A DNA stretch of 64,000 nt from a virus (IMGVR_UViG_3300026292_000602:17968-81967), one strand, 5' to 3'; positions 22,524 through 53,451 are shown, counted from the first letter of the stretch. Notes: generated from the sequence alone by a model not told the origin. A program made the numbers and translations.

Positions 22524-22716
22524 AGTTTTAAAAGATTTTTGGAAACAATGCGATCAAGTCAGTAAAGAATTGCACCAGAATGGCTATCAAGTCCACTATC
22601 ATCACGGAGGAGTGTTTGTTCATCATATAGAGCCTCCAAAGAAAACTACCCACATAAATACTACAGATGATAGACTTAACAAAGTTCAAAGAAAAGATAC
22701 AAGAACTAAAAGATAA
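22507..22716 (+). CDS. Small His-rich hypothetical protein
   Basis: MLKWFKVL...HQNGYQVHYHHGGVFVHH; overlaps the hemA start. Confidence 0.4.
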   Translation: MLKWFKVLKDFWKQCDQVSKELHQNGYQVHYHHGGVFVHHIEPPKKTTHINTTDDRLNKVQRKDTRTKR

Positions 22717-23845
22717 CGGTAATTACCGTGTCTTTAACGATATACTCCGCGAGAGGGGAGATTATCCCAATGCGATATGGTACGGGAAGTACGCAATTAA
22801 AAACATTGTAAATTGGTGTTCTAATGATTATCTTGGAATGGGACAACACAAAGTGGTGCTCGATGCCATGCATACCGCCCTTGATCAAACAGGTGCCGGT
22901 TCGGGTGGAACTAGAAACATCGCTGGAACAAGTCATTATCATGTAGCACTAGAGCACGAGTTAGCCAAATTGCATAGCAAACAGTCAGCTCTACTCTTTA
23001 CATCAGCTTATGTGGCAAATGAATGGTCACTAATTGCTTTGAAACGTATCATTCCCGACATTGTGTTTTTAAGTGATAGCAAGAATCATGCTTCTTTAAT
23101 ACAAGGAATAAGACACAGTGGTGCTGAAAAGAAAATTTTCAAGCACAATGATCTAGAGCAATTAGAGGAACTACTGCGAGACGTCAAAGGAACACCTTGC
23201 ATAGTCTTTGAGTCCGTGTATAGCATGGATGGATACGTCAGTAAATTACCAGAAATTGTTGCATTGGCTAAGAAGTACAATGCCATCACGTACCTCGACG
23301 AGGTTCACGCCGTTGGCCTGTATGGTGAAACAGGTGCTGGATATTCAGCAAAGCTAAGATCACAGGATCAAATCGACATACTGAATGGCACATTAGGTAA
23401 AGCCTTTGGAGTTCAGGGCGGATACATAGCAGGGAAGTCTGACGTTATAGACGCAATTCGTTCTGTCTCCTCTGGCTTTATTTTTACAACATCAATGAGT
23501 CCAGTTATTTGTGCAGGAGCATTGGCAAGTGTCAAGTACTTAAAAGATCACAACGACCTAAGAGAAAAACATCAAGAACGTGCTAAAAGATTAAAGAATT
23601 TATTTAGAAACAGAGGAATTCCAATAATGGAGAACGAAACACACATTGTTCCGGTTACTGTGGGCGATGCCAAAAAGTGTAAACAGATTAGTGATGAATT
23701 AATAAATGAATATGGAATATATGTTCAGGCAATAAATTATCCAACTGTTGATGTAGGCACAGAACGTCTACGTTTTGCTCCGACTCCATTCCACACGAAT
23801 GCAATGATGCATTCACTATGCGATGCTCTAGAAAAAGTATTGTAG
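22667..23845 (+). CDS. hemA: 5-aminolevulinate synthase (PLP-dependent, C4/Shemin pathway)
   Basis: YRVF, WCSNDYLGM, GSGGTRNIAGT, NHASLIQGIR, FESVYSMDG, DEVHAVGLYG, GTLGKAFG, FIFTTS, INYPTV, ERLRFAPTP. Confidence 0.95.
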   Translation: MIDLTKFKEKIQELKDNGNYRVFNDILRERGDYPNAIWYGKYAIKNIVNWCSNDYLGMGQHKVVLDAMHTALDQTGAGSGGTRNIAGTSHYHVALEHELAKLHSKQSALLFTSAYVANEWSLIALKRIIPDIVFLSDSKNHASLIQGIRHSGAEKKIFKHNDLEQLEELLRDVKGTPCIVFESVYSMDGYVSKLPEIVALAKKYNAITYLDEVHAVGLYGETGAGYSAKLRSQDQIDILNGTLGKAFGVQGGYIAGKSDVIDAIRSVSSGFIFTTSMSPVICAGALASVKYLKDHNDLREKHQERAKRLKNLFRNRGIPIMENETHIVPVTVGDAKKCKQISDELINEYGIYVQAINYPTVDVGTERLRFAPTPFHTNAMMHSLCDALEKVL

Positions 23846-23862
23846 CAACACGAAAGAAAACA

Positions 23863-24282
23863 ATGAATAAAATAAAGAAGTATATGTATATGGGAATAGG
23901 TTTCCTGTGTGTGGGTATTGCTTACATAGGATTTATTACTCCTGGCATACCATTTAGTATATTCTTAGTCATTGCCGCTTGGGCATTTGCCAAAAGTTCT
24001 CCACGTATGGAGGCTTGGTTATATAATCACCCTTGGTTTGGCAAGTTTCTAACTAACTGGACTAAGAAAAGAGTATTCCCTACTAAAGGGAAATATGCAA
24101 TGATTCTAGTCATGGCATCAACCTTGGTGTTTACCTGGTTCGCAACAGAGAATCTTAAAGCTATTATGTGGAGCGGAGGCTTTATGGCACTCGTGGCTAT
24201 ATGGGCTTGGAGATACCCCGGCTCTGTCGAGGAACACTCACGTAGAATAAAAGCAGGCGAAAAAGTTGCCTGGTTAAAGTAA
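23863..24282 (+). CDS. ybaN: YbaN/DUF454 inner-membrane protein
   Basis: GIAYIGFITPGIPFSIFLVIAAWAFAKSSPRMEAWLYNHPWFG. Confidence 0.85.
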   Translation: MNKIKKYMYMGIGFLCVGIAYIGFITPGIPFSIFLVIAAWAFAKSSPRMEAWLYNHPWFGKFLTNWTKKRVFPTKGKYAMILVMASTLVFTWFATENLKAIMWSGGFMALVAIWAWRYPGSVEEHSRRIKAGEKVAWLK

Positions 24283-24528
24283 AGAGTATTTCTTTAACTT
24301 TTTAATTAAATTAGTCCTGCCAATGCCTAATGCAATGGCTGTTTTTGTTCTATTACCATCATAATGAGCAAGGTTATCTTCAATAGCCCTGCGTTCTAGT
24401 TTTTCTAATTCTTCAGGTAATGTTTTTTCTTGAAAATCGGGACCTGTAAACCACTTATCGAATTCATCAACGATTTCGTTCTGTTCACGGTAGTTTTTAG
24501 CTAGATCTGTCCACGAGATTTTAGACAT
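24274..24528 (-). CDS. Fis-like HTH_8 DNA-binding protein
   Basis: LEKLERRAIEDNLAHYDGNRTKTAIALGIGRTNLIKKLKKY. Confidence 0.8.
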   Translation of the reverse strand: MSKISWTDLAKNYREQNEIVDEFDKWFTGPDFQEKTLPEELEKLERRAIEDNLAHYDGNRTKTAIALGIGRTNLIKKLKKYSLL

Positions 24529-24691
24529 AATGCCTCCTTAATATGTGCCTCTAAGGGTCGCTAATAATATTTAGTCTATTAAGTACGCATTTAAATTAAA
24601 TAGGTACTAAACGGTGTAACTTTTGTTACATCTGATAAATAATAATACGAAGGGCACAACTCTACCAGATTAGGGATTACACGGAAAATAT

Positions 24692-25243
24692 ATGAAAATT
24701 AAAATGTTAAAACTTATATTGACAGTAGCAATACTTGGTTTATTTACGAGCAACCTAGCTTATGCTGAAAATACAGTAACATCTACTGTTACAGGAACAA
24801 CAACTGTCGATAAGACTCCACCAACTGCATCAGCACCAAACGTAATGATTAATAATCAAGATGTTTGTTCAACTGGTACAAGTGCCGCAGTACAAACCCA
24901 GGTGTTTGGTATTGCAGGTGGAACTACAATAAGAGACTTAAACTGTGAAAGACTGAAACTATCTAGATCATTATATGGTATGGGTATGAAGGTTGCGGCG
25001 GTCAGTCTATTATGTCAAGATGCACGAGTATTTAATGCTATGGAAATGGCAGGAACACCTTGTCCGTATAAAGGAAAGATTGGTATTGAGGCCGCTAAGG
25101 CTTGGGCTGAAAATCCAGAGAAACGTCCTGATTATGAGAAATGGTTAAAAGAAAATGATCTTGAAGCATACGAAAAAGAATGGAAGAATAAGGCAACTAC
25201 TTGGAGCATCGGTATTGGTGCTATTCTGTTGCTTTTACTCTAA
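24692..25243 (+). CDS. Secreted/membrane-anchored Cys-containing protein
   Basis: Signal peptide; PPTASAP...DVC...NCERLKL...LLCQD...GTPCP; C-terminal TM. Confidence 0.7.
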   Translation: MKIKMLKLILTVAILGLFTSNLAYAENTVTSTVTGTTTVDKTPPTASAPNVMINNQDVCSTGTSAAVQTQVFGIAGGTTIRDLNCERLKLSRSLYGMGMKVAAVSLLCQDARVFNAMEMAGTPCPYKGKIGIEAAKAWAENPEKRPDYEKWLKENDLEAYEKEWKNKATTWSIGIGAILLLLL

Positions 25244-27221
25244 TCCAACCCTAGCATACGATCAACAATATACAGTCGGAGGCACAGGACCCAATGGCGG
25301 TGTTGTAACTTCTGTGGCTGTAACTAGTGAAGTTACAGGAACTTCTACTTCACAGGTTGGTGATAACTTAGAAACTATTACTACAAACAAATATACAGAA
25401 ACAGTTGTAGAAAATGTAACTACAACTAACCAAATAACTCAAACGGTCATTACTGTAACTGAAGAAGATAAGTCTACAGGTGATATTATTACAAGTTCTA
25501 ACCTTAATAGTACTGGAGTAAACAGTCCAGCTAATGCTAAAGTAAATTGTCAATACGGTGATCCAAGTGCCCCGCAATACGGAGTTTTTTATAATGATCC
25601 AGCAGGTTGTGGACGACATACTGCCGCTTGGGACGACCTTCATGTTAAACAAGGTCCAGGGTCACACGTATATACAACTGACATGGATCATTGGATGACT
25701 CAGGAGGAAATGAATTATGGCTTTAGTGCTACTGCTAATGCAGAAATTAGAGATTCCTATCCCAACACAACTAACCCTACAACTTTTACAATTTCGTTAA
25801 AACTTTATGATCCAGACACAGGTGCTAATACAATAGAAACTAATACTTGGAACATAACGCACTCCTCCCACCAAACATATAGTACAACTTTAGATATTAC
25901 TACTAATACCTATGGTGAAAATTCACAGCTAATAGCAACATACCTTGCACAAGATCCAAGTTGGTCTACTCAGTACGGAAATCATGGCTGGTCCACAGAT
26001 GTAGAAAACTTTAACCTGATCTTAACTTATGATGTAATAGAATCAGTAGTACAAACAATTAATCAGACTATTGTAAATAGTGTAAGTTCTGCTTTAGAAA
26101 CAATAGAAAATGACACTTCTTTAGTTTATAGTCCTATTATACAACCAGGTACAGATACAAATACAACTCCAATGACACAACCAGTTGAGTCATTTGAAGT
26201 AGAAATAGCTAGTACCGAAGGTAGTGGAATGAATTTAGAATTCACTGTTGAGGTTGACGAAACAGCTGGTAATGTAAATGTTGAGATGGCTTCAACAAAC
26301 TTAGAAACAGGTGTAGTTACAATTGATGCAGTTGCGTCAATAAGTTTAGATTTTAGTGCTGACTCAGGTGGAACAACAACAACTGAAATGCAAGTTGAAG
26401 TGGCAACTGTTGAAGCATCAGTTGGAGCACAGGTAGGTGGAGCAATTGAAAGTGCAGTTGCAGAAGCAACAACTGAAATGCAAGTTGCAGAAGCAACAAC
26501 TGAATCAACATCAACAGAATCAACAACGTCGGCGACAAGTGAGGTAAGTACAAGTGAGGGGAATAATAATGAGTCGTCAACGCAAGAGAATGTTTCCGAA
26601 AGCGAAAGCTCAGAGAGTACAGAAACGTCTGAGTCGTCAACAGAAAACGTACAAGAGTCCAGTGAAAATGCTGAACAGCCAGTGGAAAGTAGTAACAGTG
26701 AATCAGAGGAATCAGCAGAGGGAGATACTGACGCTGATGGAGATTCCAGTGAATCAGAAACCGAATCCGAAACCGAAGATACAGGAAATACAGAATCCGA
26801 CGGGGACAAAGACGAATCTTCTTCCAGGGGAGAAAAGTCTGAAGGAAAAGACGGAGATTCTAAATCAGACAAAAATAACAAGGGGAAAAACGAAAAATCC
26901 AAGTCTGAGAAGAAAAAGATTATAGCAAAGAAAGTAGAAGAAGCTAAACAGAAGATTGCTACTAAAATACTAGCCGCAATGGCAGATACTTATAGTGCTA
27001 TTAACGAAACAACTAAAATTGCACTTATATCTAGCTTAACAGATACTAAATCATTCAAAGCATATCTAGACAAACAAAATTCATTACCATTAGATTGGTA
27101 TACTGATGTGCAAGTATATCAAGATATGCCTATGCTATTAGATCCAGCAGGCATACTATATGATATGGCACAAGACAAAATTATGGACGAAATGATCATG
27201 ATGCAATACGATTTGAACTAA
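25155..27221 (+). CDS. Large exported protein with Ser/Glu/Thr-rich low-complexity linker
   Basis: Signal-like segment, Thr-rich beta region, acidic tract, duplicated TTEMQV. Confidence 0.7.
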   Translation: MILKHTKKNGRIRQLLGASVLVLFCCFYSNPTLAYDQQYTVGGTGPNGGVVTSVAVTSEVTGTSTSQVGDNLETITTNKYTETVVENVTTTNQITQTVITVTEEDKSTGDIITSSNLNSTGVNSPANAKVNCQYGDPSAPQYGVFYNDPAGCGRHTAAWDDLHVKQGPGSHVYTTDMDHWMTQEEMNYGFSATANAEIRDSYPNTTNPTTFTISLKLYDPDTGANTIETNTWNITHSSHQTYSTTLDITTNTYGENSQLIATYLAQDPSWSTQYGNHGWSTDVENFNLILTYDVIESVVQTINQTIVNSVSSALETIENDTSLVYSPIIQPGTDTNTTPMTQPVESFEVEIASTEGSGMNLEFTVEVDETAGNVNVEMASTNLETGVVTIDAVASISLDFSADSGGTTTTEMQVEVATVEASVGAQVGGAIESAVAEATTEMQVAEATTESTSTESTTSATSEVSTSEGNNNESSTQENVSESESSESTETSESSTENVQESSENAEQPVESSNSESEESAEGDTDADGDSSESETESETEDTGNTESDGDKDESSSRGEKSEGKDGDSKSDKNNKGKNEKSKSEKKKIIAKKVEEAKQKIATKILAAMADTYSAINETTKIALISSLTDTKSFKAYLDKQNSLPLDWYTDVQVYQDMPMLLDPAGILYDMAQDKIMDEMIMMQYDLN

Positions 27222-27239
27222 ATACAAACGGAGAAAAAT

Positions 27240-27710
27240 ATGGCAGAAATAGAATATAAGGGCATAAAAGTTGGTGGTAGTAAACTATTATTAGTACTGC
27301 CATTAGTAGGTACTATTATTGGTGGTCTTTGGGGAGGCTTTGAGCTTTTCAATAGATACCAAATGATGGAAGAAAAGATTAATACCTATGTTGCTCCTGA
27401 TTTAAGCACCTTTGATAAGAAGTTAGCAACTGTACAAGCAGAGCTTGATATGGTACTAGAAGAAGTAACACTAGTGGCTGATGTAGCCAAAGAGCTTAAA
27501 AACGACTTACGTGGTGATGTAAGACGTATCGAAAAGATCGTAGAAGATGTTGAAAGTAGAGTTAAGAACGACAGTAGAGAACTTAACACAGACATCAGCG
27601 ATGCAATTAAAGACATCAAACAAGAAATGGCTGACCTTGAAGCGAAGATCGAAAAGCAAATTAAAACTGCTTTAGAAAATCCTTTAAGTAATATGGCTAC
27701 TACGAAGTAA
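27240..27710 (+). CDS. TM-anchored coiled-coil protein
   Basis: N-terminal TM, heptads, ALENPL C-terminus. Confidence 0.7.
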   Translation: MAEIEYKGIKVGGSKLLLVLPLVGTIIGGLWGGFELFNRYQMMEEKINTYVAPDLSTFDKKLATVQAELDMVLEEVTLVADVAKELKNDLRGDVRRIEKIVEDVESRVKNDSRELNTDISDAIKDIKQEMADLEAKIEKQIKTALENPLSNMATTK

Positions 27711-27719
27711 CTTTAAACT

Positions 27720-28121
27720 TTACGTACCGCTATTAGGATTAACTGGGGTAATACCTATCCCATTCTGTAAGACACAGGCTCCATTAGTTTCTGGAAATAA
27801 AGCAACTAAAGTCCAAGTTAATGTTCTAGTATTCATAAACATAACTCCTGGCTGTTTTAGTATTGATCCACCTGGTATTTGAATTGATACTTCCATCTGT
27901 AAGAAGGGCACTTCTTCGTACCTTTTAATCATATCTAATGTTGCTTCTGCACTACTACAATCAATTAGCATAGGCAATTTTTGAAATGGCCCTGCTTCAG
28001 GTTGTGGTCCTAGTTCAGGTGTTGGTGTTGGATTAACATTATCTTCTTCGTCTGTATGACTGGCTAATGCACTAAATGATATGGTGGACACTAGAAATAG
28101 TATTGTTAAGAATTTAAACAT
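27720..28121 (-). CDS. Secreted hypothetical protein
   Basis: Signal peptide, two Cys, GGAGG RBS. Confidence 0.65.
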   Translation of the reverse strand: MFKFLTILFLVSTISFSALASHTDEEDNVNPTPTPELGPQPEAGPFQKLPMLIDCSSAEATLDMIKRYEEVPFLQMEVSIQIPGGSILKQPGVMFMNTRTLTWTLVALFPETNGACVLQNGIGITPVNPNSGT

Positions 28122-28147
28122 GGTAATATACCTCCTACGTATATTTC

Positions 28148-28729
28148 CTAAATGTATTTAGAAAATGTTTGTCTACTGCACAGTTCAAGAGCTTTTAAGT
28201 ATTGCTCTTCTTCATTAAAGTCAAACACACTATGGTTACTAGGCTGTGCAAACAACCAAGCACCTTGTCGTATTTCATTAGCTAATTGGTCTTCAGTCCA
28301 TACACTCATACCAGCAAACATTCTCCAACCCTTAGGAGTGTTACCAGTTGATAGTTTTTCTATCATAAGCATATCACTTGTCATAGCTAATTCATTGCCG
28401 CTCTTTAATGTGTTAGTACTTTGCCATTCATTCGTATGTAACAACAGAACTGATGTATCATTAACAGGTCCGCCTTTGTGAACAAATGTTTCTTCCAATG
28501 CAGGATCAAAAGGTATATCTTTAAGAAGTCCTAGACTTGAACATCTAAACTGACTTGGCTTATTTAAAATGACTCCCATGACTTCGCCGCCGTCTACTCT
28601 ATGCTCGTAGATATAAACTACAGAACGAGCAAACACGGGACTACTGTTTAGTACAGGGCCAGCAATTAATAACTGCCCACTATATTTCGTATTCACGTTT
28701 CTAACTCCAGTCTGGTAATGGTCCGCCAT
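28148..28729 (-). CDS. YqgE/AlgH (DUF179) family protein
   Basis: GQLLIA...FARSVVYI.EH...GVILNKP...GGPV...FAGMSVW..QL..EI..GAW. Confidence 0.85.
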   Translation of the reverse strand: MADHYQTGVRNVNTKYSGQLLIAGPVLNSSPVFARSVVYIYEHRVDGGEVMGVILNKPSQFRCSSLGLLKDIPFDPALEETFVHKGGPVNDTSVLLLHTNEWQSTNTLKSGNELAMTSDMLMIEKLSTGNTPKGWRMFAGMSVWTEDQLANEIRQGAWLFAQPSNHSVFDFNEEEQYLKALELCSRQTFSKYI

Positions 28730-28940
28730 ACTTTTTGCCTTTTATTTTCTTTCCGCCTACCGTTACACGTTTCTTGCCAACCTTATGGCTTTTACTTCCT
28801 GATCGTGTTCGTAGACCTTGCGACTTACAAGAAGCTAAATTCGATGCACCTAATGAACTATCAGGTCTAGAAGACCTACATAGTTTCTTCGATGCTTGAG
28901 CTTCGAGCTCTGCCTTAGTGTCTAAATCAACTATTTTCAT
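28701..28940 (-). CDS. Small basic probable virion protein
   Basis: MKIVDL...ELE leader followed by a K/S/G-rich body; late promoter upstream. Confidence 0.6.
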   Translation of the reverse strand: MKIVDLDTKAELEAQASKKLCRSSRPDSSLGASNLASCKSQGLRTRSGSKSHKVGKKRVTVGGKKIKGKKYGGPLPDWS

Positions 28941-28951
28941 TGCAAATATAT

Positions 28952-29167
28952 TTATCTATATTTGTCTGCTGGGTTGTCGTATCTGTCTCCATCGTCACAT
29001 AGTTTAAATGTTAGCACTTTACGAGGACCTTTCGTTGTATTAATAGAAATGTCTCCTGATTTCTCGAAGTATTCGATCTTTGTAATCTTTGCTTTGTCAT
29101 TGTATTTCCCCACTTGTATTTCTTGCCCAACCTCTAGGTTGATTGCTAGGTTTCTTAACTGTGTCAT
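28952..29167 (-). CDS. Small hypothetical protein
   Basis: 71-aa ORF with AGGAG RBS. Confidence 0.65.
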   Translation of the reverse strand: MTQLRNLAINLEVGQEIQVGKYNDKAKITKIEYFEKSGDISINTTKGPRKVLTFKLCDDGDRYDNPADKYR

Positions 29168-29305
29168 TGGAGTTCTCCTTCCGGTACTACTAGAACGTAG
29201 TACTGTCTTTCTTGTATTAGTATTTAACCAAGGCCCCGCTGTACGGTTTTCAAATAACCTATTTTAGTTGTTTAACCTAGAACTTGTAGCTAAATATTTC
29301 AGCAT

Positions 29306-29893
29306 ATGATAGTTTATACACAAATAAACGAACCAAATAACCTAAAAGAGGGTGAAATTTGGCTACCTTGCTTGGAAACTAGCCCAACTAAACACCGACA
29401 GAGTTGGAAACAACCACTATTAATTACTCATATTGATGCAATTAAGCACTATGACTACGATATAGTACCGTTGTTAGATCAAGTAGTACATTGTATAGGT
29501 CCTAAAACTTACGATAGATTAAAGGATATGGGCTTTACACAAGTACACTTACACGGTCTAGTTGCAGAGGACATCAAGATAAACCAAATGCCTATAACAC
29601 CTTGCACGTGGTTACACGGCGATCGTTACAGTAAAGACTTTAGTACCTATAATGGGGTCACTGCTATAAAAACCTTCACTACTTCATTATGTGAGGGGTC
29701 ACTGTCCAAAATAAAAGAGATGGTCACTACTGGAAAACCACCATCTAAAATTTTTGTCTACTCAGATTTAGTTTGCCAGGCCCTCCAAGAATTTGGTGAC
29801 TGGCCCCAGACTGAATTGGGCTTGACAGAGAGTTGTGAAGCAGATTCGTCTAAGTGGTTGAAATTAAACACTTTTTACCCCGGCGAAGAATAA
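29306..29893 (+). CDS. Divergent uroporphyrinogen-III synthase-like protein
   Basis: VHCIGPKTYDRLKDMGF matches the HemD hhaIGxxTaxxLxxxGf motif. WLPCLE, LLITH, WLHG and VYS fall where HemD P, FTS, xRG and FxS elements are expected. Confidence 0.5.
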   Translation: MIVYTQINEPNNLKEGEIWLPCLETSPTKHRQSWKQPLLITHIDAIKHYDYDIVPLLDQVVHCIGPKTYDRLKDMGFTQVHLHGLVAEDIKINQMPITPCTWLHGDRYSKDFSTYNGVTAIKTFTTSLCEGSLSKIKEMVTTGKPPSKIFVYSDLVCQALQEFGDWPQTELGLTESCEADSSKWLKLNTFYPGEE

Positions 29894-30060
29894 TTTTACC
29901 AAAAGGCCCCGCTGTAAGGGTCACCGCCTGAGACCAAAAACCTTCCATTTTATGGGCGGTACAGCAGGTCAAGGTGTCATCCACAGCCTCTCGATTTATT
30001 TTTAACTAACCTTGCCAAAATAGGTTGACTTTTTTAGACGGTGAGCTTATTATAAAGTAT

Positions 30061-30282
30061 ATGATGAGAACACTTATGATTCTGACATTTGCGGTAGTCG
30101 TTGGTATTGCAATGATTTCAAATGTAAATGCAGAAGAGGAAAACTGGTCTAACAAGATCAATAATTGGGTCGTCACTGAAAAACAGGAGATTATAGAGTA
30201 CCAAAAAAATAGCTGGGCAGAAGGTAAAGCTCAATTGGCTAGAAACTGGACTCAAATAAAATCCTTATTTCAAGGCAAATAG
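30061..30282 (+). CDS. Small secreted hypothetical protein
   Basis: Signal peptide MMRTLMILTF...VNA. Confidence 0.6.
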   Translation: MMRTLMILTFAVVVGIAMISNVNAEEENWSNKINNWVVTEKQEIIEYQKNSWAEGKAQLARNWTQIKSLFQGK

Positions 30283-30329
30283 GCTCAATTAAATTAAACT
30301 ACTATAAAAGAGGCATTAGGAGGCCCGTA

Positions 30330-30587
30330 ATGAAAAAATATATTGCAATAATATTGTTAGGAATCTTCACTACGGGTTGCTCCGTTTCCACTATGTCCAC
30401 TAACCCCAAATATGAATGGCTCACTGGCTCAACAGCCGCCTATGGTGACAAAGAAGGCGATGTCTGTTATACTTGTGGAGAGAATTTTATCTTTATTCCA
30501 AATGAAGATTTAGGCTCTCTGAAGTCAGCGAAGCGAAACGGCTTCCAATGGGGTTGCAATTCAAAAGATTGTGTCCCAGGTTATTAA
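30330..30587 (+). CDS. Small lipoprotein
   Basis: Lipobox-like TTGC after a hydrophobic stretch; CxxC. Confidence 0.6.
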   Translation: MKKYIAIILLGIFTTGCSVSTMSTNPKYEWLTGSTAAYGDKEGDVCYTCGENFIFIPNEDLGSLKSAKRNGFQWGCNSKDCVPGY

Positions 30588-30592
30588 GTTAA

Positions 30593-30666
30593 GGGGGAGT
30601 GGTATAATGGTATTACACGGGTCTCCAAAACCCTAGATCAAGGTTCGATTCCTTGCTCCTCTGCCA
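30593..30666 (+). tRNA. tRNA-Trp(CCA)
   Basis: GGGGGAG...CT-CCA-AA...GGTTCGATTCC...CTCCTCT-G-CCA. Confidence 0.9.
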
Positions 30667-30793
30667 AATCTTTTTTTAATCTTTTTTCAATTATCCAATA
30701 AAATCAATGGTTTACAAGGCCAAAAAAAGGTTGACCTTTTGGATCTTTGACCTTATACTATATATAACAATTAGGAAAAAGAGGGCTTAAAAT

Positions 30794-41928: not shown

Positions 41929-41940
41929 GATCTTCTTTAT

Positions 41941-43698: not shown

Positions 43699-43783
43699 AA
43701 TAAGGGGAAAATAATGGTTGACAAATTGGATAAAAGAGTGCATAATATACATATAATAAGAAATAACAGAAGGGCAAAAATAT

Positions 43784-44822: not shown

Positions 44823-44912
44823 TCTAGCACAGCAATCAATCGAATAAGTCCCGGGGTGAACCTCCGGGCATCGATCCCCAGAACAGAAGAAGGACCAGGA
44901 CAGTAATCTATC

Positions 44913-44997
44913 GCTCCCATGATGGAATAGGTAGACATAACAGACTTAAAATCTGTGGCCAATTGGCGTCCCGGTTCGAGTCCGGGTGGGAGTACCA
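44913..44997 (+). tRNA. tRNA-Leu(TAA)
   Basis: GCTCCCA...CT-TAA-AA, long variable arm, GGTTCGAGTCC...TGGGAGT-A-CCA. Confidence 0.95.
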
Positions 44998-45008
44998 ACC
45001 TTTGATAT

Positions 45009-45085
45009 CTACCCGTAGCTCAGCAGGATAGAGCAACGGTCTTCTAAACCGTGGGTCGGGGGTTCGAATCCCTCCGGGTAGGCCA
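45009..45085 (+). tRNA. tRNA-Arg(TCT)
   Basis: CTACCCG...CT-TCT-AA...GGTTCGAATCC...CGGGTAG-G-CCA. Confidence 0.95.
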
Positions 45086-45314
45086 AAGGTGTTGCAAAAA
45101 TACAACAAAAATAATGGTTGACAAAATGGATAAGATCTGCTATTATTATAATATGAAACAATTAAAAGAGATCATAAAAGAAACCTTAGATTTTTGGCCT
45201 ATGACGATCGTAGTGCCAGGTCTATTAATTCTTATTCTTTTTAATAATATTGGTTGACATTAGGTCAATTAGGTGTTATATTAAGAGTATAATAAGAAAC
45301 AGAAAGAGGGCAAA

Positions 45315-46112
45315 ATGTTATCACTAATAGGTTTATTCGCAATCGCGTTCGTAGTAATCAAGTATTTTCCAGACATATTGATGTTCTGTGTGAAGGCGGC
45401 TATCGTATTGATTGGCTTGTACTTTTTACTTGGAGCTCTATTGTGGATATTTGGGGCTTCGATCGCTATACACATGAATGGCGTTTTATTAGGATTATAG
45501 AAAAATAATGGTTGACAAATTGGTTTGTTGACTGTATACTGTAAGTATAACAATTAGGAAAGAGGGCAAAAATGAGTCAAGATTTTAAAAGTAGAAATCC
45601 AAAGTTCGTAGGCTTAACCAGGTTTTGGGGAGGTCAGAAGAGAGGTTCTTGTGTGCAGGTGACTGTTGCAAGGAACTGGAGAAAAGAAGGTGACGTAGGT
45701 CCCGCAGATAAGTTCTTCAACTCCATAACATTGTCGAAGCAAGAAGCAGTGGCGTTGGCCCAGGACTTGTTGGACTTCGCAAGTGGGACTGAAGTAGACG
45801 AATTCGACGCACCAGTTTTGGAGTGTCAGACAGACTTTACACCAGCAGATAAACCGAGGGCAAATTAGGGGTTGACAAACCAATCCCTATATGCTATTAT
45901 AATATAATAATAAGGAGGGCAACTTGAAACAAGTAATTCAAATTTTAGGATATTTTTTAATCGCACTAGGCTTGATGGCAGTAGCAGGATCAGGCGGAGA
46001 CTGTGATGGAAGATGTGGCCCAGGGAATTCAATCATCGAGATGATGCAGATCGCAGGTATCGGTCTAGCTATGATGATCACAGGGTTCTACTGTGCTATG
46101 CAGAAAAGTTAA
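45315..46112 (+). CDS. Early small genes (45315-45500 membrane, 45572-45868, 45924-46112 membrane)
   Basis: Each has its own promoter and a GAGGGC RBS. Confidence 0.65.
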
Positions 46113-46193
46113 ATTAGGGGTTGACTTCTAGATACTCAGAAGTTATACTGTAAGAACAATAAGGCAATAACAACATTTAAAAGCGAGGGCTAA

Positions 46194-47198
46194 ATGACAC
46201 AACAAATAAAAATCAAATCAGGCAGTTACAAGATTAGAGGCAAGGACGTCGAACTTGCTGGCATGGTCTTTCCAATGGTAGAAGAGTTCAAAGTAGGAGC
46301 TCAAGGTGGTTACGTAACTGTTGACGGAAAGGCTATTGCAGGCTTTCCAGATCGTAACATTAAGATCAAAGTTGACTCAGCAGATGACTACGAGTTAACA
46401 CGTGCCAAAACAACTGTTAGAGAAGAAACAGACGAAGAGACAATCGAACGTTTACGTGAACGATTCCAAATCCTAGAAGATATGACAAGAGCTTGTAAGA
46501 AAGGCGATGTACGTGCCATGATAGTTACAGGCCCTCCAGGAGTTGGTAAGTCATTCGGAGTAGAGAAAGTACTTGGTAAGCATGAGCTGATCGCTGAGTT
46601 AGGTGACAGACCTGCGAAGTATCAAGTTGTTAAGGGTGCGATGAGTGCCATAGGTTTATACTGTAAACTGTACAACTACGCCGACAAAGACAATGTACTA
46701 GTTTTTGATGACTGTGATAGTATACTACAAGAAGACTTGAGCTTGAACATTTTGAAAGCGGCTCTAGACTCTAAGAAGACTAGACGTATACATTGGAACA
46801 CAGATTCCTTCAAGTTACGTAACGAAGGTGTTCCGGACAGTTTCGAGTTCAAAGGTAGTGCAATCTTTATCACGAACATCAAGTTCGATAACGTTAAGTC
46901 TAAGAAGATGAGAGATCACTTAGAAGCTATTGAGAGTAGATGTCACTACATAGACTTGACGATTGATACTGAACGTGAGAAGATGTTACGTATCAAGCAG
47001 ATCGTTACTGATGGTATGCTGAATGAGTATGCATTGGGTGAAGAACAAGTCGAGAGAGTAATGGACTTTGTCGACATTAATAAAAAGAACTTAAGAGAGC
47101 TGTCATTAAGAACAGTACTTAAGATTGCGGACTTGGCTAAAGCATTTCCAAACAATTGGGAAGCTATGGCGGAGAATACAGTACTACGTAGAGCCTAG
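46194..47198 (+). CDS. P-loop/AAA ATPase
   Basis: Walker A GPPGVGKS, Walker B LVFDDCD, IFITN sensor-1 and SRC arginine finger. Confidence 0.85.
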   Translation: MTQQIKIKSGSYKIRGKDVELAGMVFPMVEEFKVGAQGGYVTVDGKAIAGFPDRNIKIKVDSADDYELTRAKTTVREETDEETIERLRERFQILEDMTRACKKGDVRAMIVTGPPGVGKSFGVEKVLGKHELIAELGDRPAKYQVVKGAMSAIGLYCKLYNYADKDNVLVFDDCDSILQEDLSLNILKAALDSKKTRRIHWNTDSFKLRNEGVPDSFEFKGSAIFITNIKFDNVKSKKMRDHLEAIESRCHYIDLTIDTEREKMLRIKQIVTDGMLNEYALGEEQVERVMDFVDINKKNLRELSLRTVLKIADLAKAFPNNWEAMAENTVLRRA

Positions 47199-47268
47199 CC
47201 CTCAACTTGCTCCGTGTACTGTACGCCCCTGGTAGAGTTGTGCCCTCGGCTCTCCAGGGGCACTTTTA
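47180..47268 (+). terminator. Double hairpin ending in a terminator; both hairpins carry GCCCTC at the loop
   Basis: GCCCCTGG-T-AGAGTTG-[TGCCCT]-CGGCTCT-CCAGGGGC-ACTTTT, preceded by AGTAC..GAGC..[GCCCTC]..GCTC..GTACT. Confidence 0.7.
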
Positions 47269-47388
47269 TGGCTAAAACCTCGCACAAATACACACAAAAA
47301 AGATTGAAAAATACCACACATTTTGGTTGACCTTTGCTCTAGTAGACTGTATACTGTAAGTATAATTAATTAAAGAGGGCTACACAAT

Positions 47389-47733
47389 ATGAACTATAAA
47401 CTATACCAAATACACTTAACAGACGCAGAGGTTGATCTTATTAATAGCAAGGGTCACAATGCAGTAGAGTCGCATAAGATGAAGCTTGATATGAGCTTTG
47501 ATAAGGCTCCACATAAGCTGGCTAAAGCGGCTATGGATAAGGGCTACTATACACACGTAGCCAACATAGAAGCAGAGGGCTTAGAGGGTGTGTTCGAAGT
47601 AGGTAACATAGGTCCAGAGGCTAACATACAGAGGCTGGCTCCTATGCACTCTGTTAGTGTTGCGGACGTAGTAGAGACTCCAGAGGGTGTGCGTCACGTT
47701 GTAGCTAGTGTAGGGTTCAAAGAACTAGCTTAA
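47389..47733 (+). CDS. Early hypothetical protein
   Basis: YKLYQI...MHSVSVADVV...VASVGF (YodL-like ending). Confidence 0.7.
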   Translation: MNYKLYQIHLTDAEVDLINSKGHNAVESHKMKLDMSFDKAPHKLAKAAMDKGYYTHVANIEAEGLEGVFEVGNIGPEANIQRLAPMHSVSVADVVETPEGVRHVVASVGFKELA

Positions 47734-47755
47734 GACACAGTAGAAATAAAATAAT

Positions 47756-47781
47756 AAAAAGGTCCTTCGGGGCCTTTTTTT
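47756..47781 (+). terminator. Terminator closing the early region
   Basis: AAAAAGGTCC-TTCG-GGGCCTTTTTTT. Confidence 0.9.
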
Positions 47782-48092
47782 ATGAAAAAAATTTCTGAGG
47801 GGCGAGGGGCGTAGTATATTATTTTACGAGTACAGTTTAGCAGTGAGCAGGGGTAAAATCACCACCTCAAAAGCAAAAGTACTTCTATTAAAAAAACTGT
47901 AATCCAAATTTTTTGGCTTAAAGACCCTTTTCGTTTACTGCCCAAACTATAAGCATTAATAGTACTAACAGTATCACATAGGGTAGGAAAGTGTAATACT
48001 TGTAGCTTATAATGGTTAATTGCTCAATATACGTATGCATACTAGTATTTAAACTTGACTTTTATCCACTTATATAGTAGTATAAGTACAGT

Positions 48093-48359
48093 ATGAAAGC
48101 AATACGTGTATTAGTATTATTATTTGTGTGTTTGAGCTCTTCTGCTTGTAGTAGCAGTTTAGTATTAAGCTCATTAGGGCTTGGAATGGGTGTTGCCCAG
48201 AAGTCCGTTGCTAGTACAGTATATTCGGGTGTTGATGTAGGGGTTAGTGCAACCACTGGTAAGTCAATACGTGAACACGTACTAGAACCAGCAGAAGAAG
48301 AAAACAAAACATTACAACCCAACAATAATAGACATATAGAATGGGTCACGCCGAAATAG
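48093..48359 (+). CDS. Small lipoprotein-like protein
   Basis: Hydrophobic leader ending SSAC. Confidence 0.55.
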   Translation: MKAIRVLVLLFVCLSSSACSSSLVLSSLGLGMGVAQKSVASTVYSGVDVGVSATTGKSIREHVLEPAEEENKTLQPNNNRHIEWVTPK

Positions 48360-48462
48360 ATTTCTAGGTCTAAATTTTTTTGCGATCATTTTTTCTGCTC
48401 ATAATAACCTTTTTGTGTAAGTCCAAATAAATACAAGTGACGACCAATAGAGGAGAAACATT

Positions 48463-48993
48463 ATGGATCAAAACTCCAATAACAAAATTGATGAACTACT
48501 AGCTATCATGGACGAGGTTAGAGCAAAGCTCGATCATGTTGAAAGTGTTTTATTACCTACTATGGAGTCAGACTACGACCCGGCTATGGCAGATGCAGAA
48601 GATACTATGATGGATCCTATGCATGACGACACAGCAGACGACAGCGACGCAGAACTATTTCACCCAGCAGACCCAGTACCACCTATGCATACAGAGACTA
48701 TGCCAGAGATGCCTACTGATATGCCATTGTTTGATGATACAGTAACTGAAGAGCCAACGCCTGCTAACGATGATATGCACACTCACGAAGATGGTACTAC
48801 CCACGAACACGAAGGTGGCGATGTACCGCATACACACGATGAGCCAATGCCAGCAGTAGCACCTGACCCAAATATGCCAGCTCCAATGCCTGATGAAGTA
48901 GCGATGCCTCAAACAGAAGCAGAAGAGATAGCAGACCAAACTATGTACGACTCATTACCAAGTGATACTGAGCCTACAAAAGAATCAGAGTAA
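48463..48993 (+). CDS. Acidic Met/Pro/His-rich disordered protein
   Basis: N-terminal coiled coil and HTHEDGTTHEHEGGDVPHTH; late promoter and AGGAG. Confidence 0.7.
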   Translation: MDQNSNNKIDELLAIMDEVRAKLDHVESVLLPTMESDYDPAMADAEDTMMDPMHDDTADDSDAELFHPADPVPPMHTETMPEMPTDMPLFDDTVTEEPTPANDDMHTHEDGTTHEHEGGDVPHTHDEPMPAVAPDPNMPAPMPDEVAMPQTEAEEIADQTMYDSLPSDTEPTKESE

Positions 48994-49127
48994 CACCTCT
49001 GTATAGGACTTTGTAACCGACGACCGCACTAGAGCGGGGAAGAAGCGAGAGTAGAGATCCCCGCAAGTCCTTTTAAACTAATACTTAATTCCCTACACAC
49101 GAACTTAAATAATACTGCACAATATTT

Positions 49128-50046
49128 GTGCAACTTATGAACTTTAAAAACTTAATAACCTGGTTACCTATAATGGCCGCTTTAATCGGTTCGCTATACA
49201 CGGGTATCAACGTTGTGTCAAAAATGAATAATACGTTGGAGGCACACACAATAGCTATTTCAGAAATGACGTCAACACTTAAAAGTATTGATGAGAAGTA
49301 TGAAATAGAAATTAAAAATCTAACACAAAAGTACACAGAAGCAAGAGAAGAACTATTCCAAGAGATGACTAGAGTTTGGACTGACGTTAATAGAAATGAC
49401 GCTAATCTAGATGCTATGAATCAATCATACTACAAGTTAGACGATGCAATACGCCAATTCGGATATGACCTTAAAGATCTGAAACGTGAGCTAGAAGGTG
49501 GATATTAAGTGAATGAGTTTTTTAATTCTTGGAAGTTTGCTTTAATAATAGGCATACTCCTTGCACTACTGGCAGTATTTGGAGGACCTAATGGATAGAA
49601 ATGTATTCACAGGTGTACTAATTCTTATTATAGTACTAGTGGCTTTCTTCGTTAAGCCTGCAAATGCACGTAATGAATACTTGCAGTACGATAGTCATTG
49701 TGACGGACCAACACTTGAACCATATGTAGAGTACAGTCAAAGTGAAAGTACGTCAACAGGTTCTAGTACATACGGATCCAATGATGACAGAGGTACTATA
49801 GGTTTAAGATTACGTATACCATTAAGCTCAACTTGTAGTAAAACATACAAGAAAACAATGGAAGAGAATGCATTACTAAGACAACAATTAGAAATGCTTA
49901 AGATGTGCGGTCGTTACAAAGATCTAGAGCTTGGTGAAGAATTTGCTATGGTACGTGAAAAGTGCAAGGGTGTTAAACGTAAAGCAGGTACTGAAGACGA
50001 GGAACGTGAAATTCCTGAAACTCTACTTACTCCTTTAAAAGATTAA
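49128..50046 (+). CDS. TM/coiled-coil protein (49128-49508) and secreted Cys protein (about 49591-50046)
   Basis: Hydrophobic leaders, heptads, Cys pairs. Confidence 0.6.
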
Positions 50047-50218
50047 TTATTCAAAAAACTTGCGAGACCAAATAAGTCCGCCAACACTAGTAACCATTAT
50101 AATAATGCCTGTTAGGAATGGAGCATAAAGTCCACCTAGCATTAATAATAATCCTAATATGATAATAGGCACGATGATCTTCATGCCTTGTAGTAATAAT
50201 ATTATTTCGTCCACTATA

Positions 50219-50584
50219 TTATTTTAAGCTAACAGTTCCGCCAGCTTCTTCTAGTTTCTTTTTAACTTCTTCTGCTTTTTCTTTATCAGCGTCTTCAACT
50301 ACAGGCTTAGGTAATGCTTCAACAAAAGTCTTTGCCTCCATTAAACCTAATCCCATTATTTCTTTAACTGCTTTAAGCACGTTAATCTTCTTTTCGCCAA
50401 AGCCTTCAAGCACAACTGTTGCTGTTGCTTTTTCTTCTGCTACTGCACCTGCTACTGCTGGTGCTCCTGCAACCATGTTGTCCAAATCAATGTTCCACTC
50501 TTTAGCTAATCTTTTTGATAGCTCTAAGGCTTCCATTACGTTTAGTTGACCTAAGTCTTTAACTAATGATTCTAATTTTTCCAT
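50219..50584 (-). CDS. rplL: Ribosomal protein L7/L12 (bL12)
   Basis: [16 protein letters not shown], Ala-rich hinge, [26 protein letters not shown]...[21 protein letters not shown]. Confidence 0.95.
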
Positions 50585-50589
50585 GTTTC

Positions 50590-51398
50590 CTATTCTGAAA
50601 GGATAAGTTTTTTAATCGTAATCGAACCGTCTATGTTCTTTTCCAACTCAGCCTTAGATTTGATACACTGATACTTAATGCCTTCTGAGTATTGTCTTTC
50701 AGCTGTACGTTTGCCTCTTAAACAAGCACCCATGCTATCTTGTATTCTGTGTTCCTTGATTTCATTGTTCATGAACATCAATAATGCTACTACCACGTCA
50801 ATCATCATCAACCCTTTCTATATTCTTAACAATTTTTCTAACCAAGTCTTAGGTTCTACGTCACCTGTTCTAAAGCAACCCCATTCAAAAATATCAATAG
50901 CTACGTAGTAGCCCATATAGAAAGCAATCACTAATAGTGTTGCAAAGAATAATCCTAGTAGCATAGCTTTAAACATTAGTGGTCTCCGTTACCATTCTTG
51001 TAGTGCATATCTCTACTTGCGTCTTTTAGTTTCTCTATATCGCTTGACATCTTCTCTACTTGTTTTGAAAGGAAGTCGATATTAACTTTGTTAGTCATAT
51101 TAGATTCAAGAACCTTTTCCATCTTCTCTACTGCTTTGTAAAGTTCCTCAATTAACATAAATTGTTCTAGGTCGTTTTGGGATTGGCCTAATTCGCCACG
51201 TGGGTACTTGATTCTAAATTCTGTATTTGCTTCAAGGTCTTTTTGCATTAATGTTAATGTATTGCTATGTTGGTTTAACTTTTCAGTTATTCCAAAGTAT
51301 GCCCAAACACCCATACATATAGCACCAATGATTGCGATCATGTTTCTGATCGGCATACTAATATTTGTGTTATCGTTTAGTTTAACATCTTTACTCAT
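50590..51398 (-). CDS. Small hypothetical genes (50590-50811, 50976-51398 TM + coiled coil)
   Basis: Coupled minus-strand ORFs after a late promoter. Confidence 0.6.
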
Positions 51399-51619
51399 AA
51401 ACCCTTTTTAATGAGTATTTATCGATCTTTGTTAAACAACTCGAATAATGTACGTACTTTTTCTTGTAGCACCTCTATTGCAGTATGCATTTTAGCTAAT
51501 ACTATTACTAGTGAGATAAAGCCCAAAGCAATAGGCCATAGCTGAGAGATTTCGTTAAGATTCATTTGATCGCCCTCCAGGAGTCGGTAGCAACTGTATT
51601 TATTACGTTAAATACAGAT

Positions 51620-51826
51620 ATGAAGACCAAGTACAAAACAAGTGCCATACAAGCATTAATAGTATTAGTTCCAACATATCTAGTAGCCTTTGCAACAGAA
51701 AAAATGGTCTATACTATACCTATGTTAGCGGCCGCAAGTTTTGTAGCCGCGGCGTTTAGTAAAGACGATATACCAAATCGTTTAGATGATATATCTAAAG
51801 ACTCACGTGAAGACGGCGGAAGTTAA
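51620..51826 (+). CDS. Small two-TM protein upstream of hemF
   Basis: MKTKYKTSAIQALIVLVP..., after TAAATA. Confidence 0.5.
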   Translation: MKTKYKTSAIQALIVLVPTYLVAFATEKMVYTIPMLAAASFVAAAFSKDDIPNRLDDISKDSREDGGS

Positions 51827-51844
51827 TTACACTCGGATTATACA

Positions 51845-52636
51845 ATGAAGCAACAAGCACTAACGTGGTTCCATAAGTTGCAAGATGATATTTGGAATGT
51901 TTGGAAACAAACAGACGGAAGCGGAAAAGTAAACGAATGGGGCTCAGGTGAATATAGAATTTGGACAGGTGACGTGTATGAAAAGGCCGGTGTCGCATTT
52001 AGTAACGTAAAGAATACCTTGCCAGCCCAGCTAGGTGATTTGGCAGGACAACCATTTGAATCATTTGGTGTGTCCGTTGTAGTTCACACAGGCAATCCAA
52101 ATACTCCAGGACTTCATTTCAATACAAGATATATTACTACACCTAACAAGGCTTGGTTTGGTGGCGGAATGGATATAACACCTTACGTAGACAACCACCC
52201 ATTAATAAATTGGTATCATAATAAACTGATGACTATGTGCGACAAGCATAACGAAAACTATTACGAAAAGTTTAGCAAAGACTGTGATGACTATTTCTAT
52301 TTGCCACATAGAGAAGAACATAGAGGAGCAGGTGGAATATTTTTTGATTACCTCCCAGCACCAATAGGTGATACACAAGGTTGGCCACAAACACAAGAGA
52401 ATTGGAAATTTGTACAAGACGTTGGCACAACGTTTATAGAAGTTATGCAGTATGTTGTTGACAACACAGCTAATATAAAATTTACACACGAAGATAAAAA
52501 CAAACAATTAATTAAACGTGGACGATATGTAGAATTTAATTTGTTATACGATAAAGGCACACGTTTCGGTTTAGAAGCCGGCGGTCATACAGAAGCAATA
52601 TTAATGAGTATGCCTCCTAATGCGAGATGGACATGA
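51845..52636 (+). CDS. hemF: Oxygen-dependent coproporphyrinogen III oxidase
   Basis: EKAGVAFS, GVSVVVH..NP..P.LHFNTRY, WFGGGMDITP, CDDYFYLPHR.E.RG.GGIFFD, RGRYVEFNLLYDKGTRFGL, ILMSMPP...W. Confidence 0.95.
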   Translation: MKQQALTWFHKLQDDIWNVWKQTDGSGKVNEWGSGEYRIWTGDVYEKAGVAFSNVKNTLPAQLGDLAGQPFESFGVSVVVHTGNPNTPGLHFNTRYITTPNKAWFGGGMDITPYVDNHPLINWYHNKLMTMCDKHNENYYEKFSKDCDDYFYLPHREEHRGAGGIFFDYLPAPIGDTQGWPQTQENWKFVQDVGTTFIEVMQYVVDNTANIKFTHEDKNKQLIKRGRYVEFNLLYDKGTRFGLEAGGHTEAILMSMPPNARWT

Positions 52637-53451
52637 GATTAATCCAGCCTATATTTTTAACACAAGGTAACACCTATCCTCTAGATGGTATGGGTGAAGA
52701 AAACAAAGCCTACGCACTTATAGATGTACACGAACGTATAATAAGAGATATAGCAGATGGCGTTACTGACTTTCTTATATTCCCCGTCCCCCTAGCTAAA
52801 GAAGTAGATCCTAATTGGGGTTGGCAGGGCGATGCTATTAACGAAATAAAAAATCGTTATGCATACGACAGCAATTTAATAGTTGACGTATGCTTATGTA
52901 GTACAATGCCAGATGGCCATTGTAAAGTTACAGGTGACGAAGAAGCAACACGTGAGCTACTATTACAACAAGCACTTATATTAGATAAAGCAGGTGCAGA
53001 TGTTTTAGCACCAAGCGATTGCCAAGAGCATACAGTAAAAGATATACGAAAGGCCCTGCTAGGTAAAAAAATTATGAGTTACAGTACAAAGTTTAGAAGT
53101 ACGTTTTACAGCGGCTACCGTAAAGCAGTTAACGTAGAAAAGGGTATACATAGAGATTACCAATTAGAAGTTAGCGATCGCCAAGGCGCAATAGAACGTA
53201 GTATAAAGTATGCTAAAGATGGAGCGGACTACTTAATGGTTAAGCCCGGCATGACTAGTATAGATTTAATACACGACATTAAAAAGTCTGTGAGAGATGC
53301 AACACATGGAATAGAACTTCCTGTGGGCGTGTTCCAGACGTCAGGCGAGTGGTCTGCACTAGAAAGCACAGAACAATTAAAAGAAACTTATAACATCTTT
53401 AAACGTGCTGGTGCTGACTATATGATTAGTTATGGTGCTAGATTACTTTAG
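52627..53451 (+). CDS. hemB: Porphobilinogen synthase (ALA dehydratase), compact Zn-type
   Basis: LIQPIF, DVCLCS..PDGHC, GAD..APSD, IMSYSTKF.S.FY, DYQL, LMVKPG, FQTSGE, RAGAD..ISY. Confidence 0.92.
   Translation: MDMRLIQPIFLTQGNTYPLDGMGEENKAYALIDVHERIIRDIADGVTDFLIFPVPLAKEVDPNWGWQGDAINEIKNRYAYDSNLIVDVCLCSTMPDGHCKVTGDEEATRELLLQQALILDKAGADVLAPSDCQEHTVKDIRKALLGKKIMSYSTKFRSTFYSGYRKAVNVEKGIHRDYQLEVSDRQGAIERSIKYAKDGADYLMVKPGMTSIDLIHDIKKSVRDATHGIELPVGVFQTSGEWSALESTEQLKETYNIFKRAGADYMISYGARLL

Follow-up and report, generated by a model that had tools for sequence, protein, structure and literature searches.

The phage genes known to act on tetrapyrroles have mostly been those for degrading heme and making pigments, joined in 2024 by a gene for the first step of synthesis. 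The gene valaS, which encodes 5-aminolevulinate synthase (ALAS), is an established phage gene that occurs either by itself or together with hemO and pcyA/X (Wegner et al. 2024, Nat Commun, PMC11480375), and the ALAS of another phage complements an Escherichia coli 5-aminolevulinate (ALA) auxotroph (PMC11480375). Coproporphyrinogen oxidase and porphobilinogen deaminase were reported from one pelagimyophage group, the 'deep ecotype' (Zaragoza-Solas et al. 2020, mSystems, PMC7029224), and large freshwater phages list ALAS, bchE, cobS and cobL (Chen et al. 2020 preprint, 10.1101/2020.02.13.942896). Literature searches on phage hemE, hemF, hemB or DUF454 returned nothing beyond these three reports. 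The present analysis concerns IMG/VR virus record IMGVR_UViG_3300026292_000602 (81,967 bp), of which bases 17968-81967 were taken as a 64,000-nucleotide window; all coordinates refer to this window unless stated otherwise. The window carries five heme-associated genes, encoding ALAS, a DUF454 protein, a HemD-like protein, HemF and HemB.

The contig represents part of the genome of an uncultured marine bacteriophage of very large size. Terminal repeats are absent, and the CheckV completeness of 23% implies a genome of ~350 kb. The window has a G+C content of 33-44% and contains 156 open reading frames (ORFs) according to a simple ORF call. All five heme-associated genes are uninterrupted ORFs on the + strand and form three loci, with 5 and 22 kb of phage genes between them. 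The sequence-only reading had placed the heme genes at three separate loci amid bona fide phage genes, and this was borne out: the window encodes the large and small subunits of a class Ia ribonucleotide reductase (RNR), an exonuclease, a DnaB-type helicase, a primase, a pectate-lyase-like protein with an Mtd_N domain (tail-fibre-like), ClpP, a cell-wall hydrolase, a protein with a weak virion-protein match, and tRNAs. We consider it likely that this ~350-kb marine phage keeps long-resident tetrapyrrole-synthesis genes as auxiliary metabolic genes. The evidence consists of the identity of the genes, the intact catalytic motifs in ALAS and HemB, the HemD fold, clades made up of viral sequences only and recurrence across contigs and samples.

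Step 1 of the Shemin route is encoded by hemA at 22667-23845 (+). Its product, ALAS, scored 580.2 bits against TIGR01821 (equivalog cut-off 338.55), and the models of the paralogues BioF and Kbl gave 320 bits, under their own cut-offs. The alignment to the solved ALAS 7X98 was end-to-end (residues 7-391, 442 bits), and the pyridoxal 5'-phosphate (PLP) lysine is kept, with GTLGKAFG aligned to GTLAKAFG of 7X98. The protein stops at residue 392. In regulated bacterial ALAS, a C-terminal Cys is one of two heme ligands (PMC11480375); judging from its length and from the text of Wegner et al., the phage enzyme probably terminates ahead of this residue. ALAS is 82-94% identical to many proteins from marine metagenomes and viral contigs, and at least 120 clusters at 82-90% identity were found in marine metagenomes, none bearing an organism name. 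Among relatives ALAS is conserved at 82-94%, and its neighbouring genes much less.

The gene for a small inner-membrane protein of the DUF454/YbaN family follows at 23863-24282 (+; longest ORF from 23818). The match to PF04304 covered the whole profile (98.7 bits, cut-off 35.1), and the likely start, ATG 23863, lies 17 nt past the ALAS stop. DUF454 adjoins or is near ALAS in ~14 viral loci, and in contig L015 it lies between HemF and HemB. The recurrent pairing with ALAS provides a first functional lead for this widespread membrane family of unknown role.

The third locus contains an overlapping hemF-hemB pair. Oxygen-dependent coproporphyrinogen-III oxidase (HemF, step 6) is encoded at 51845-52636 (+) and was assigned by PF01218 (261.8 bits, cut-off 31.8) and by a match of 181 bits to the solved HemF 8T7W; 93 invariant columns are common to the HemF of the window, SAR11 HemF and viral HemF. 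The possibility that the protein (263 aa) is truncated was rejected, as HemF of SAR11 has 267-269 aa and the same terminal motif, PPNA(R/K)W. A short porphobilinogen synthase (HemB/ALAD, step 2) is encoded at 52627-53451 (+; alternative start 52633), with 165.5 bits against PF00490 (cut-off 24.6). In comparison with E. coli HemB 1B4E, DVCLCSTMPDGHC aligned to the zinc cysteines, and both Schiff-base lysines were kept (SYSTKF and MVKPG). HemB comprises 272-274 aa; the N-terminal arm is absent, since the PF00490 match begins only at position 26 of the 317 in the profile, and nine residues close to the C-terminus of E. coli HemB are missing as well. The same shortness is found in viral HemB generally (262-286 aa versus 306-343 aa in cells). 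The hemF stop overlaps this alternative hemB start in an ATGA at 52633-52636, a classic arrangement for translational coupling. Upstream of hemF, a small ORF of 68 aa from ATG 51620 (51620-51826, +) is conserved only in the near-identical contig L002.

Between these loci, at 29306-29893 (+), lies a gene for a minimal HemD-fold protein of 195 aa, a candidate uroporphyrinogen-III synthase (U3S, step 4) by its predicted fold. No Pfam or NCBIfam match was obtained at 0.01, a six-frame search of the contig with PF02602 gave no match, and comparison with PDB chains by sequence returned nothing at E up to 10. When 1.84 billion representative proteins were scanned with HMMER, no more than 32 relatives emerged, each ~180-198 aa long, and no relative was found among INPHARED GenBank phages. 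When 16 family members were scanned singly, ten gave weak HEM4 matches (best E=7e-5), and no other Pfam family appeared repeatedly. An AlphaFold2 model built from a 16-sequence alignment had a predicted local distance difference test score (pLDDT) of 94.6 and a predicted template modelling score (pTM) of 0.83. In a Foldseek search of the PDB, the 12 significant matches were all uroporphyrinogen-III synthases, from five organisms (E 3.5e-6 to 6e-4), followed by unrelated Rossmann-type proteins at E > 0.03. VIA-align, which is independent of Foldseek, was run against 48,161 chains; its top five were again all U3S (Z 11.7-13.2, 179-195 of 195 residues aligned), and the next-best match was an unrelated single domain at Z 7.0. 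The two-domain HemD fold is therefore supported at fold level for the predicted model.

The phylogenetic data bear on whether the heme genes belong to the phage or represent recent host DNA, be it transduced, from the flank of a prophage or from a chimeric assembly. Among 593 HemF relatives in one-genome-per-species GTDB contigs, the best cellular sequence, from a Pelagibacteraceae single-cell genome, was 50% identical, and the flanks of cellular HemF genes had no other gene in common with the window. In a 134-row tree, HemF of the window fell in a clade of eight whose members are without exception from viral contigs or unlabelled metagenome proteins, with 100% support in the SH-aLRT branch test and a stem of 0.62 changes per column. 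This virus-only clade is nested among Pelagibacteraceae sequences, so the ultimate source would be cellular, and host DNA can occur in IMG/VR contigs; both points favour the host-DNA explanation. The viral HemFs need at least five label changes in the tree, which implies several acquisitions or exchanges. The closest relatives of HemB were ~80 metagenome proteins 262-286 aa long, several of which lie on contigs of 333-372 kb; next came 306-aa alphaproteobacterial forms at ~41% identity. In a tree of 82 HemBs, all 62 short ones (≤290 aa) were placed on one side of a branch with support of 99.5; the cellular sample of this tree was small, and the viral origin of unlabelled rows was taken collectively, not row by row. 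Phage-only clades were thus recovered for both HemF and the short HemB. No true relative of ALAS or HemF was found among INPHARED GenBank phages, in which the matches were BioF/Kbl paralogues or host-contaminated records.

Independent assemblies agree with the window. Contig L002, an IMG/VR contig of another sample, shows 98-100% protein identity across ~50976-59400, and synteny with the window extends over 19-41 kb in contigs L156-L158 and L159-L162, whose ALAS is 85-94% and whose HemD-like protein is 51-74% identical. The hemF-hemB stretch was near-identical in 19 marine DNA runs from 13 studies, and the phage is therefore widespread; no RNA run was among the matches listed. In four runs from four studies, all bins were covered at even depth, and single contigs bridged hemF-hemB and its flanks; when metagenome contigs were aligned to the window, a depth spike at 44.5-45.1 kb was explained by the Leu/Arg tRNA pair located there. 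Near identity to host genes together with coverage breaks, which would have spoken for host DNA, was not observed: cellular HemF was at most 50% identical and lay across a long stem from the virus-only clade, depth was even, the assemblies matched, and the three loci stand apart among phage genes. A recent host origin is accordingly regarded as extremely improbable. The heme genes are, on the sequence evidence, resident phage genes and not a transduced operon; the earlier proposal of a domesticated set is upheld by their dispersal, by the low HemF identity, by the virus-only clades and by their recurrence in viral contigs. A related observation concerns viral contig L003 (IMG/VR 3300009593_000028), whose HemF is identical to protein P0006, labelled 'MAG: Euryarchaeota archaeon' at NCBI and located on a 372-kb contig; the latter is probably a near-complete relative of this phage that was mis-binned into an archaeal metagenome-assembled genome (MAG).

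A conserved-motif scan revealed 73 IMG/VR viral contigs with HemF. Within 10 kb of HemF they carry HemB (~25 contigs), ALAS (~15) and DUF454 (~9), and many of them share RNR, exonuclease, fatty-acid desaturase and other non-heme genes with the present contig. According to CheckV, most represent 5-50% of genomes near 350 kb. In searches of whole records, HemC was present in 30 of 45 related records, one of them a complete 177-kb genome with terminal repeats, HemE in 26 and ferrochelatase (HemH) in two; canonical HemD was above cut-off in none of the 45. HemJ occurred in two of 70 related records and heme oxygenase in 12 of 70, including the close relatives G001, G061 and G063 and the complete 177-kb genome G005. 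Compact clusters were found in some relatives (hemF-hemC-hemE-hemB in G028, hemE-hemF-hemC in G021), and in the 43.6-kb relative G007, which has genes in common with this contig at 60-75% identity, the genes for HemH, HemE, HemF, ALAS and HemC are dispersed. An ORF between ALAS and HemC in G007 was considered as a possible HemD and rejected, since it encodes a 2-oxoglutarate (2OG)-Fe(II) oxygenase overlapping its neighbours at both ends. Every pathway step appears to occur somewhere in this phage group, which, as far as gene content can tell, would bring most of the heme pathway into the infected cell. That the group encodes the trunk of the pathway (steps 1, 2, 4 and 6 here; 3, 5, 7 and 8 in relatives) points to the supply of heme or porphyrin as a factor limiting replication in large marine phages.

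Several results weigh against a functional multi-step pathway in this phage. HemF and HemB fell below the equivalog cut-off of 297 in their respective NCBIfam models (NF003727, 288.6 bits, a narrow miss; NF006762, 156.4 bits). The N-terminal arm that HemB lacks builds the usual octamer, and the activity and assembly state of the short enzyme are predictions. No hemC, hemE, hemJ, hemH, HemY-type oxidase, hemO (PF01126) or bilin reductase (PF05996) was detected on the 82-kb contig. It had been suggested earlier that hemC, hemE, hemJ and hemH might lie outside the window; related phage contigs do carry these genes, but none is on the contig itself, and a complete heme route in this phage would be conjectural. 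The HemD-like protein missed the cut-off of HEM4/PF02602 (10.8 bits, E=0.26, versus 27.5). Its family was found on at least 80 IMG/VR contigs in a scan made with a five-member alignment, and 73 of these 80 loci have no heme gene within 10 kb; HemC, which makes the unstable substrate of HemD, was present in none of 25 records with the family, all of them fragments of ≤37%.

The last of these results also support a different explanation, in which the 195-aa protein is not a U3S and has some other role, in tetrapyrrole binding or in an unrelated process, so that the phage encodes only steps 1, 2 and 6. The protein is ~50 residues shorter than known U3S, and a common fold is no proof of function. 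This explanation is opposed by the exclusive appearance of U3S structures at the top in both aligners with both domains covered, and by HEM4 being the sole Pfam family matched repeatedly. ALAS-DUF454 is near the HemD-fold gene in only the seven closest relatives, which keep it at a distance of ~5-7 kb, and record G038 combines the HemD-fold protein with ALAS, HemF and heme oxygenase; the fragmentary state of the 25 records also reduces the weight of the missing HemC. A role other than U3S is considered rather unlikely. The previous designation as hemD-like therefore holds for the fold in both structural comparisons; it does not hold for the sequence cut-off, and the assignment to step 4 is derived from the fold.

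If the phage retains the genes for tetrapyrrole synthesis, as we favour, the following sequence of reactions may be proposed. ALAS would convert glycine and succinyl-CoA to 5-aminolevulinate at the usual control point of the pathway, and the short zinc-type HemB would condense this product to porphobilinogen. The minimal HemD-fold protein would close hydroxymethylbilane to uroporphyrinogen III, and the oxygen-dependent HemF would convert coproporphyrinogen III to protoporphyrinogen IX. HemC, HemE, protoporphyrinogen oxidase and ferrochelatase might be encoded, as they are in related phages, in the three quarters of the genome that the contig does not cover, or might come from the host. The net effect would be to raise or sustain the output of porphyrin and heme as host gene expression fails. 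Enzyme activity, the timing of expression, the identity of the host and the end use of the product are what we infer in this scheme.

HemF acts past the uroporphyrinogen III branch point and commits flux to the protoporphyrin branch. It follows that siroheme or B12 is not the reason for HemF, and the supply of B12 precursors, one of the purposes suggested previously, fits poorly with this protoporphyrin-branch enzyme. Given the heme oxygenase in close relatives, the release of bilins or iron is as plausible an end as respiration. According to a stricter form of this idea, the pathway would not serve mainly respiration: its product would be converted to biliverdin or bilins and iron via a phage heme oxygenase (and, in some phages, a bilin reductase), or would have another phage-specific porphyrin use. 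The frequency of heme oxygenase among related records speaks for it, the published valaS-hemO-pcyA/X cassette (PMC11480375) is a precedent, and the window is rich in iron-dependent enzymes, with at least five 2OG-Fe(II) oxygenases, class Ia RNR and a fatty-acid desaturase. This form is countered by the lack of hemO and bilin reductase on the contig, by the rarity of ferrochelatase in the group and by the fact that no bilin-binding protein was identified. It is considered possible, though clearly less probable than its opposite.

Regarding the host, the iron- and oxygen-dependent enzymes (class Ia RNR, 2OG-Fe(II) oxygenases, desaturase and HemF) indicate that it would be aerobic. The tree points to a putative SAR11-type origin of the hemF gene, which is no proof of the host. 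Five Pelagibacter genomes (G071-G075, two of them complete chromosomes; L102, L124, L139, L149 and L077) encode a canonical HemB of 330-340 aa and HemF; in searches of them with two models, ALAS gave no match at E up to 0.001, and nothing exceeded the cut-off for glutamyl-tRNA reductase. If Pelagibacter-like cells are the host, the phage ALAS would add an entry step and not duplicate one. The most far-reaching form of the hypothesis is that a ~350-kb marine phage lineage collectively encodes every heme step, with an arm-less HemB of 262-286 aa and a 195-aa U3S undescribed from cells, and that its ALAS installs the pathway entry in SAR11-type hosts without a recognisable ALA-forming enzyme, as in the five Pelagibacter genomes. 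We offer it as a speculative proposal that, taken as a whole, is more probably wrong than right by a wide margin. Compact versions of the enzymes seem to have evolved in the phages themselves, and the short HemB and minimal HemD-fold protein lend themselves to asking how much of each enzyme must be retained for activity.

The regions upstream of the heme genes were searched for promoter-like elements. A T4-late-promoter-like heptamer, ATAAATA, at 22654-22660 (+) ends 6 nt before the hemA ATG, and TAAATA at 29291-29296 (+) ends 9 nt before the hemD-like ATG. The hexamer TAAATA at 51609-51614 precedes the small ORF starting at 51620, and not hemF. The T4 octamer TATAAATA was not enriched in the window (7 versus 9 expected). 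Upstream of the 156 ORFs, TAAATA occurred 16 times versus 8.9 ± 2.9 in shuffled upstream regions (antisense, 6), and ATAAATA ten times in sense orientation versus 3.4 ± 1.8 in shuffles (antisense, 2). In contigs L016, L056, L065, L066 and L067, in which ALAS is only 66-72% identical, (T)ATAAATA stands 5-8 nt before the ALAS ATG, and no Shine-Dalgarno sequence lies between the two in these six diverged phage contexts, including the window. A conserved oriented ATAAATA element upstream of genes is thus likely. Should this element be a T4-type promoter, its position so near the ATG, with no intervening Shine-Dalgarno sequence, would suggest a leaderless or near-leaderless transcript. The assumption of a TAAATA promoter at each heme locus was confirmed for hemA and the hemD-like gene and failed for hemF; the enrichment is modest, and the 'late' timing of the element is putative.

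Three exact + strand copies of the 13-mer AGGCCCCGCTGTA were detected in the window (29231, 29904 and 41393; 0.01 expected), two of which bracket the hemD-like ORF: copy 1 at 29231-29243 is 62 nt upstream of its ATG, and copy 2 at 29904-29916 is 10 nt past its stop. Interpretation as the repeat of a mobile cassette was rejected, because only the 13-mer core is shared and the flanks are unlike.

In the neighbourhood of the ALAS-DUF454 locus, a class I S-adenosylmethionine (SAM) methyltransferase is encoded directly upstream of hemA (21705-22523, +). It gave only generic methyltransferase Pfam matches and is 39-75% conserved in the closest relatives, L156-L162. Its identification as a tetrapyrrole methyltransferase was rejected: no specific family was assigned, BchM/ChlM reached 22 bits (cut-off 158.9), and all NCBIfam models were far below their cut-offs. 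Directly after DUF454, a Fis-family helix-turn-helix protein is encoded on the opposite strand (24274-24528, -). Two further genes are located between ALAS-DUF454 and the hemD-like gene. The first, at 25155-27221 (+), encodes a 688-aa protein without Pfam, PHROG or NCBIfam match, whose conservation in L156-L162 (83-93%) is as strong as that of ALAS; the second, at 27240-27710 (+), encodes a 156-aa coiled-coil-like protein, 79-95% conserved in the same contigs.

Elsewhere in the window, six tRNA genes (Gly, Met, Cys, Trp, Leu-UAA and Arg-UCU) were located at 14053-14287, 30593-30666 and 44913-45085. The block at 30-48 kb contains many small + strand ORFs behind sigma-70-like TTGAC...TATAAT sequences and has the appearance of an early region. 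At 50219-50584 (-) the phage encodes a ribosomal protein bL12 (L7/L12); both of its Pfam domains match (89 and 36.5 bits), and it is 39-53% conserved in the HemF-HemB-HemC myophage contigs L007-L015. The fatty-acid desaturase family protein (16419-17516, -) is 87-90% identical in seven other viral contigs and its 320-aa neighbour (17919-18881, -) 79-80% identical in other viral contigs, and both are far better conserved than the genes around them. The 2OG-Fe(II) oxygenase genes of the contig, at least five in number, are paralogous (3826-6136 and 61167-61808 in the window; 3832-4431 in L001). Also encoded are a cyanophage-type outer-membrane beta-barrel protein below the Pfam cut-off (20008-20613, -) and an AlgH/YqgE-like protein (28148-28729, -). 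The genes for phosphomannomutase-like, carbamoyltransferase-like and ClpP protease proteins (56233-56943, 59361-60356 and 60356-60934, -) adjoin those of the helicase and primase.

Compared with the phages carrying valaS (PMC11480375), the present phage has in common a phage ALAS with an intact PLP site, a marine T4-like or large phage as carrier and a heme-feedback site of which part is missing, in the present phage probably so. In both cases the gene is read as an auxiliary gene keeping tetrapyrrole synthesis running, and heme oxygenase occurs in relatives. In contrast to that report, in which hemB, hemF, coproporphyrinogen and DUF454 are unmentioned, ALAS is accompanied here by DUF454, HemB, HemF and the HemD-fold protein, and unlike the valaS-hemO-pcyA/X cassette, the contig is devoid of hemO and pcyX. 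Phage ALAS itself has already been published (PMC11480375), whereas the literature searched seems to contain no description of the multi-step set, of a clade of short HemBs, of the family of minimal HemD-fold proteins or of ALAS paired with DUF454. The pelagimyophages (PMC7029224) are similar in that heme genes occur in a SAR11 phage group, HemF of this contig being derived from the SAR11 HemF radiation; they differ in being myophages of ~150-180 kb with two genes named, compared with ~350 kb (CheckV) and the addition of ALAS, HemB and the HemD-fold protein here.

The alphaproteobacterial protoporphyrin-dependent pathway has the same enzyme families and reaction order, an oxygen-dependent HemF and a zinc-type HemB. 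It differs in that the phage genes are scattered through a phage genome and the set on this contig is incomplete, and in that the phage HemB is arm-less and 50-60 residues shorter and the 195-aa HemD is unrecognisable by sequence models. Finally, like the cyanophage genes ho1, pebS and pcyA and the phage genes cobS, cobL and bchE (10.1101/2020.02.13.942896), the genes described here are auxiliary genes acting on tetrapyrroles. The cyanophage pigment genes and cobS, cobL and bchE belong to post-heme steps or side branches, whereas in the present phage it is the biosynthetic trunk that is encoded.

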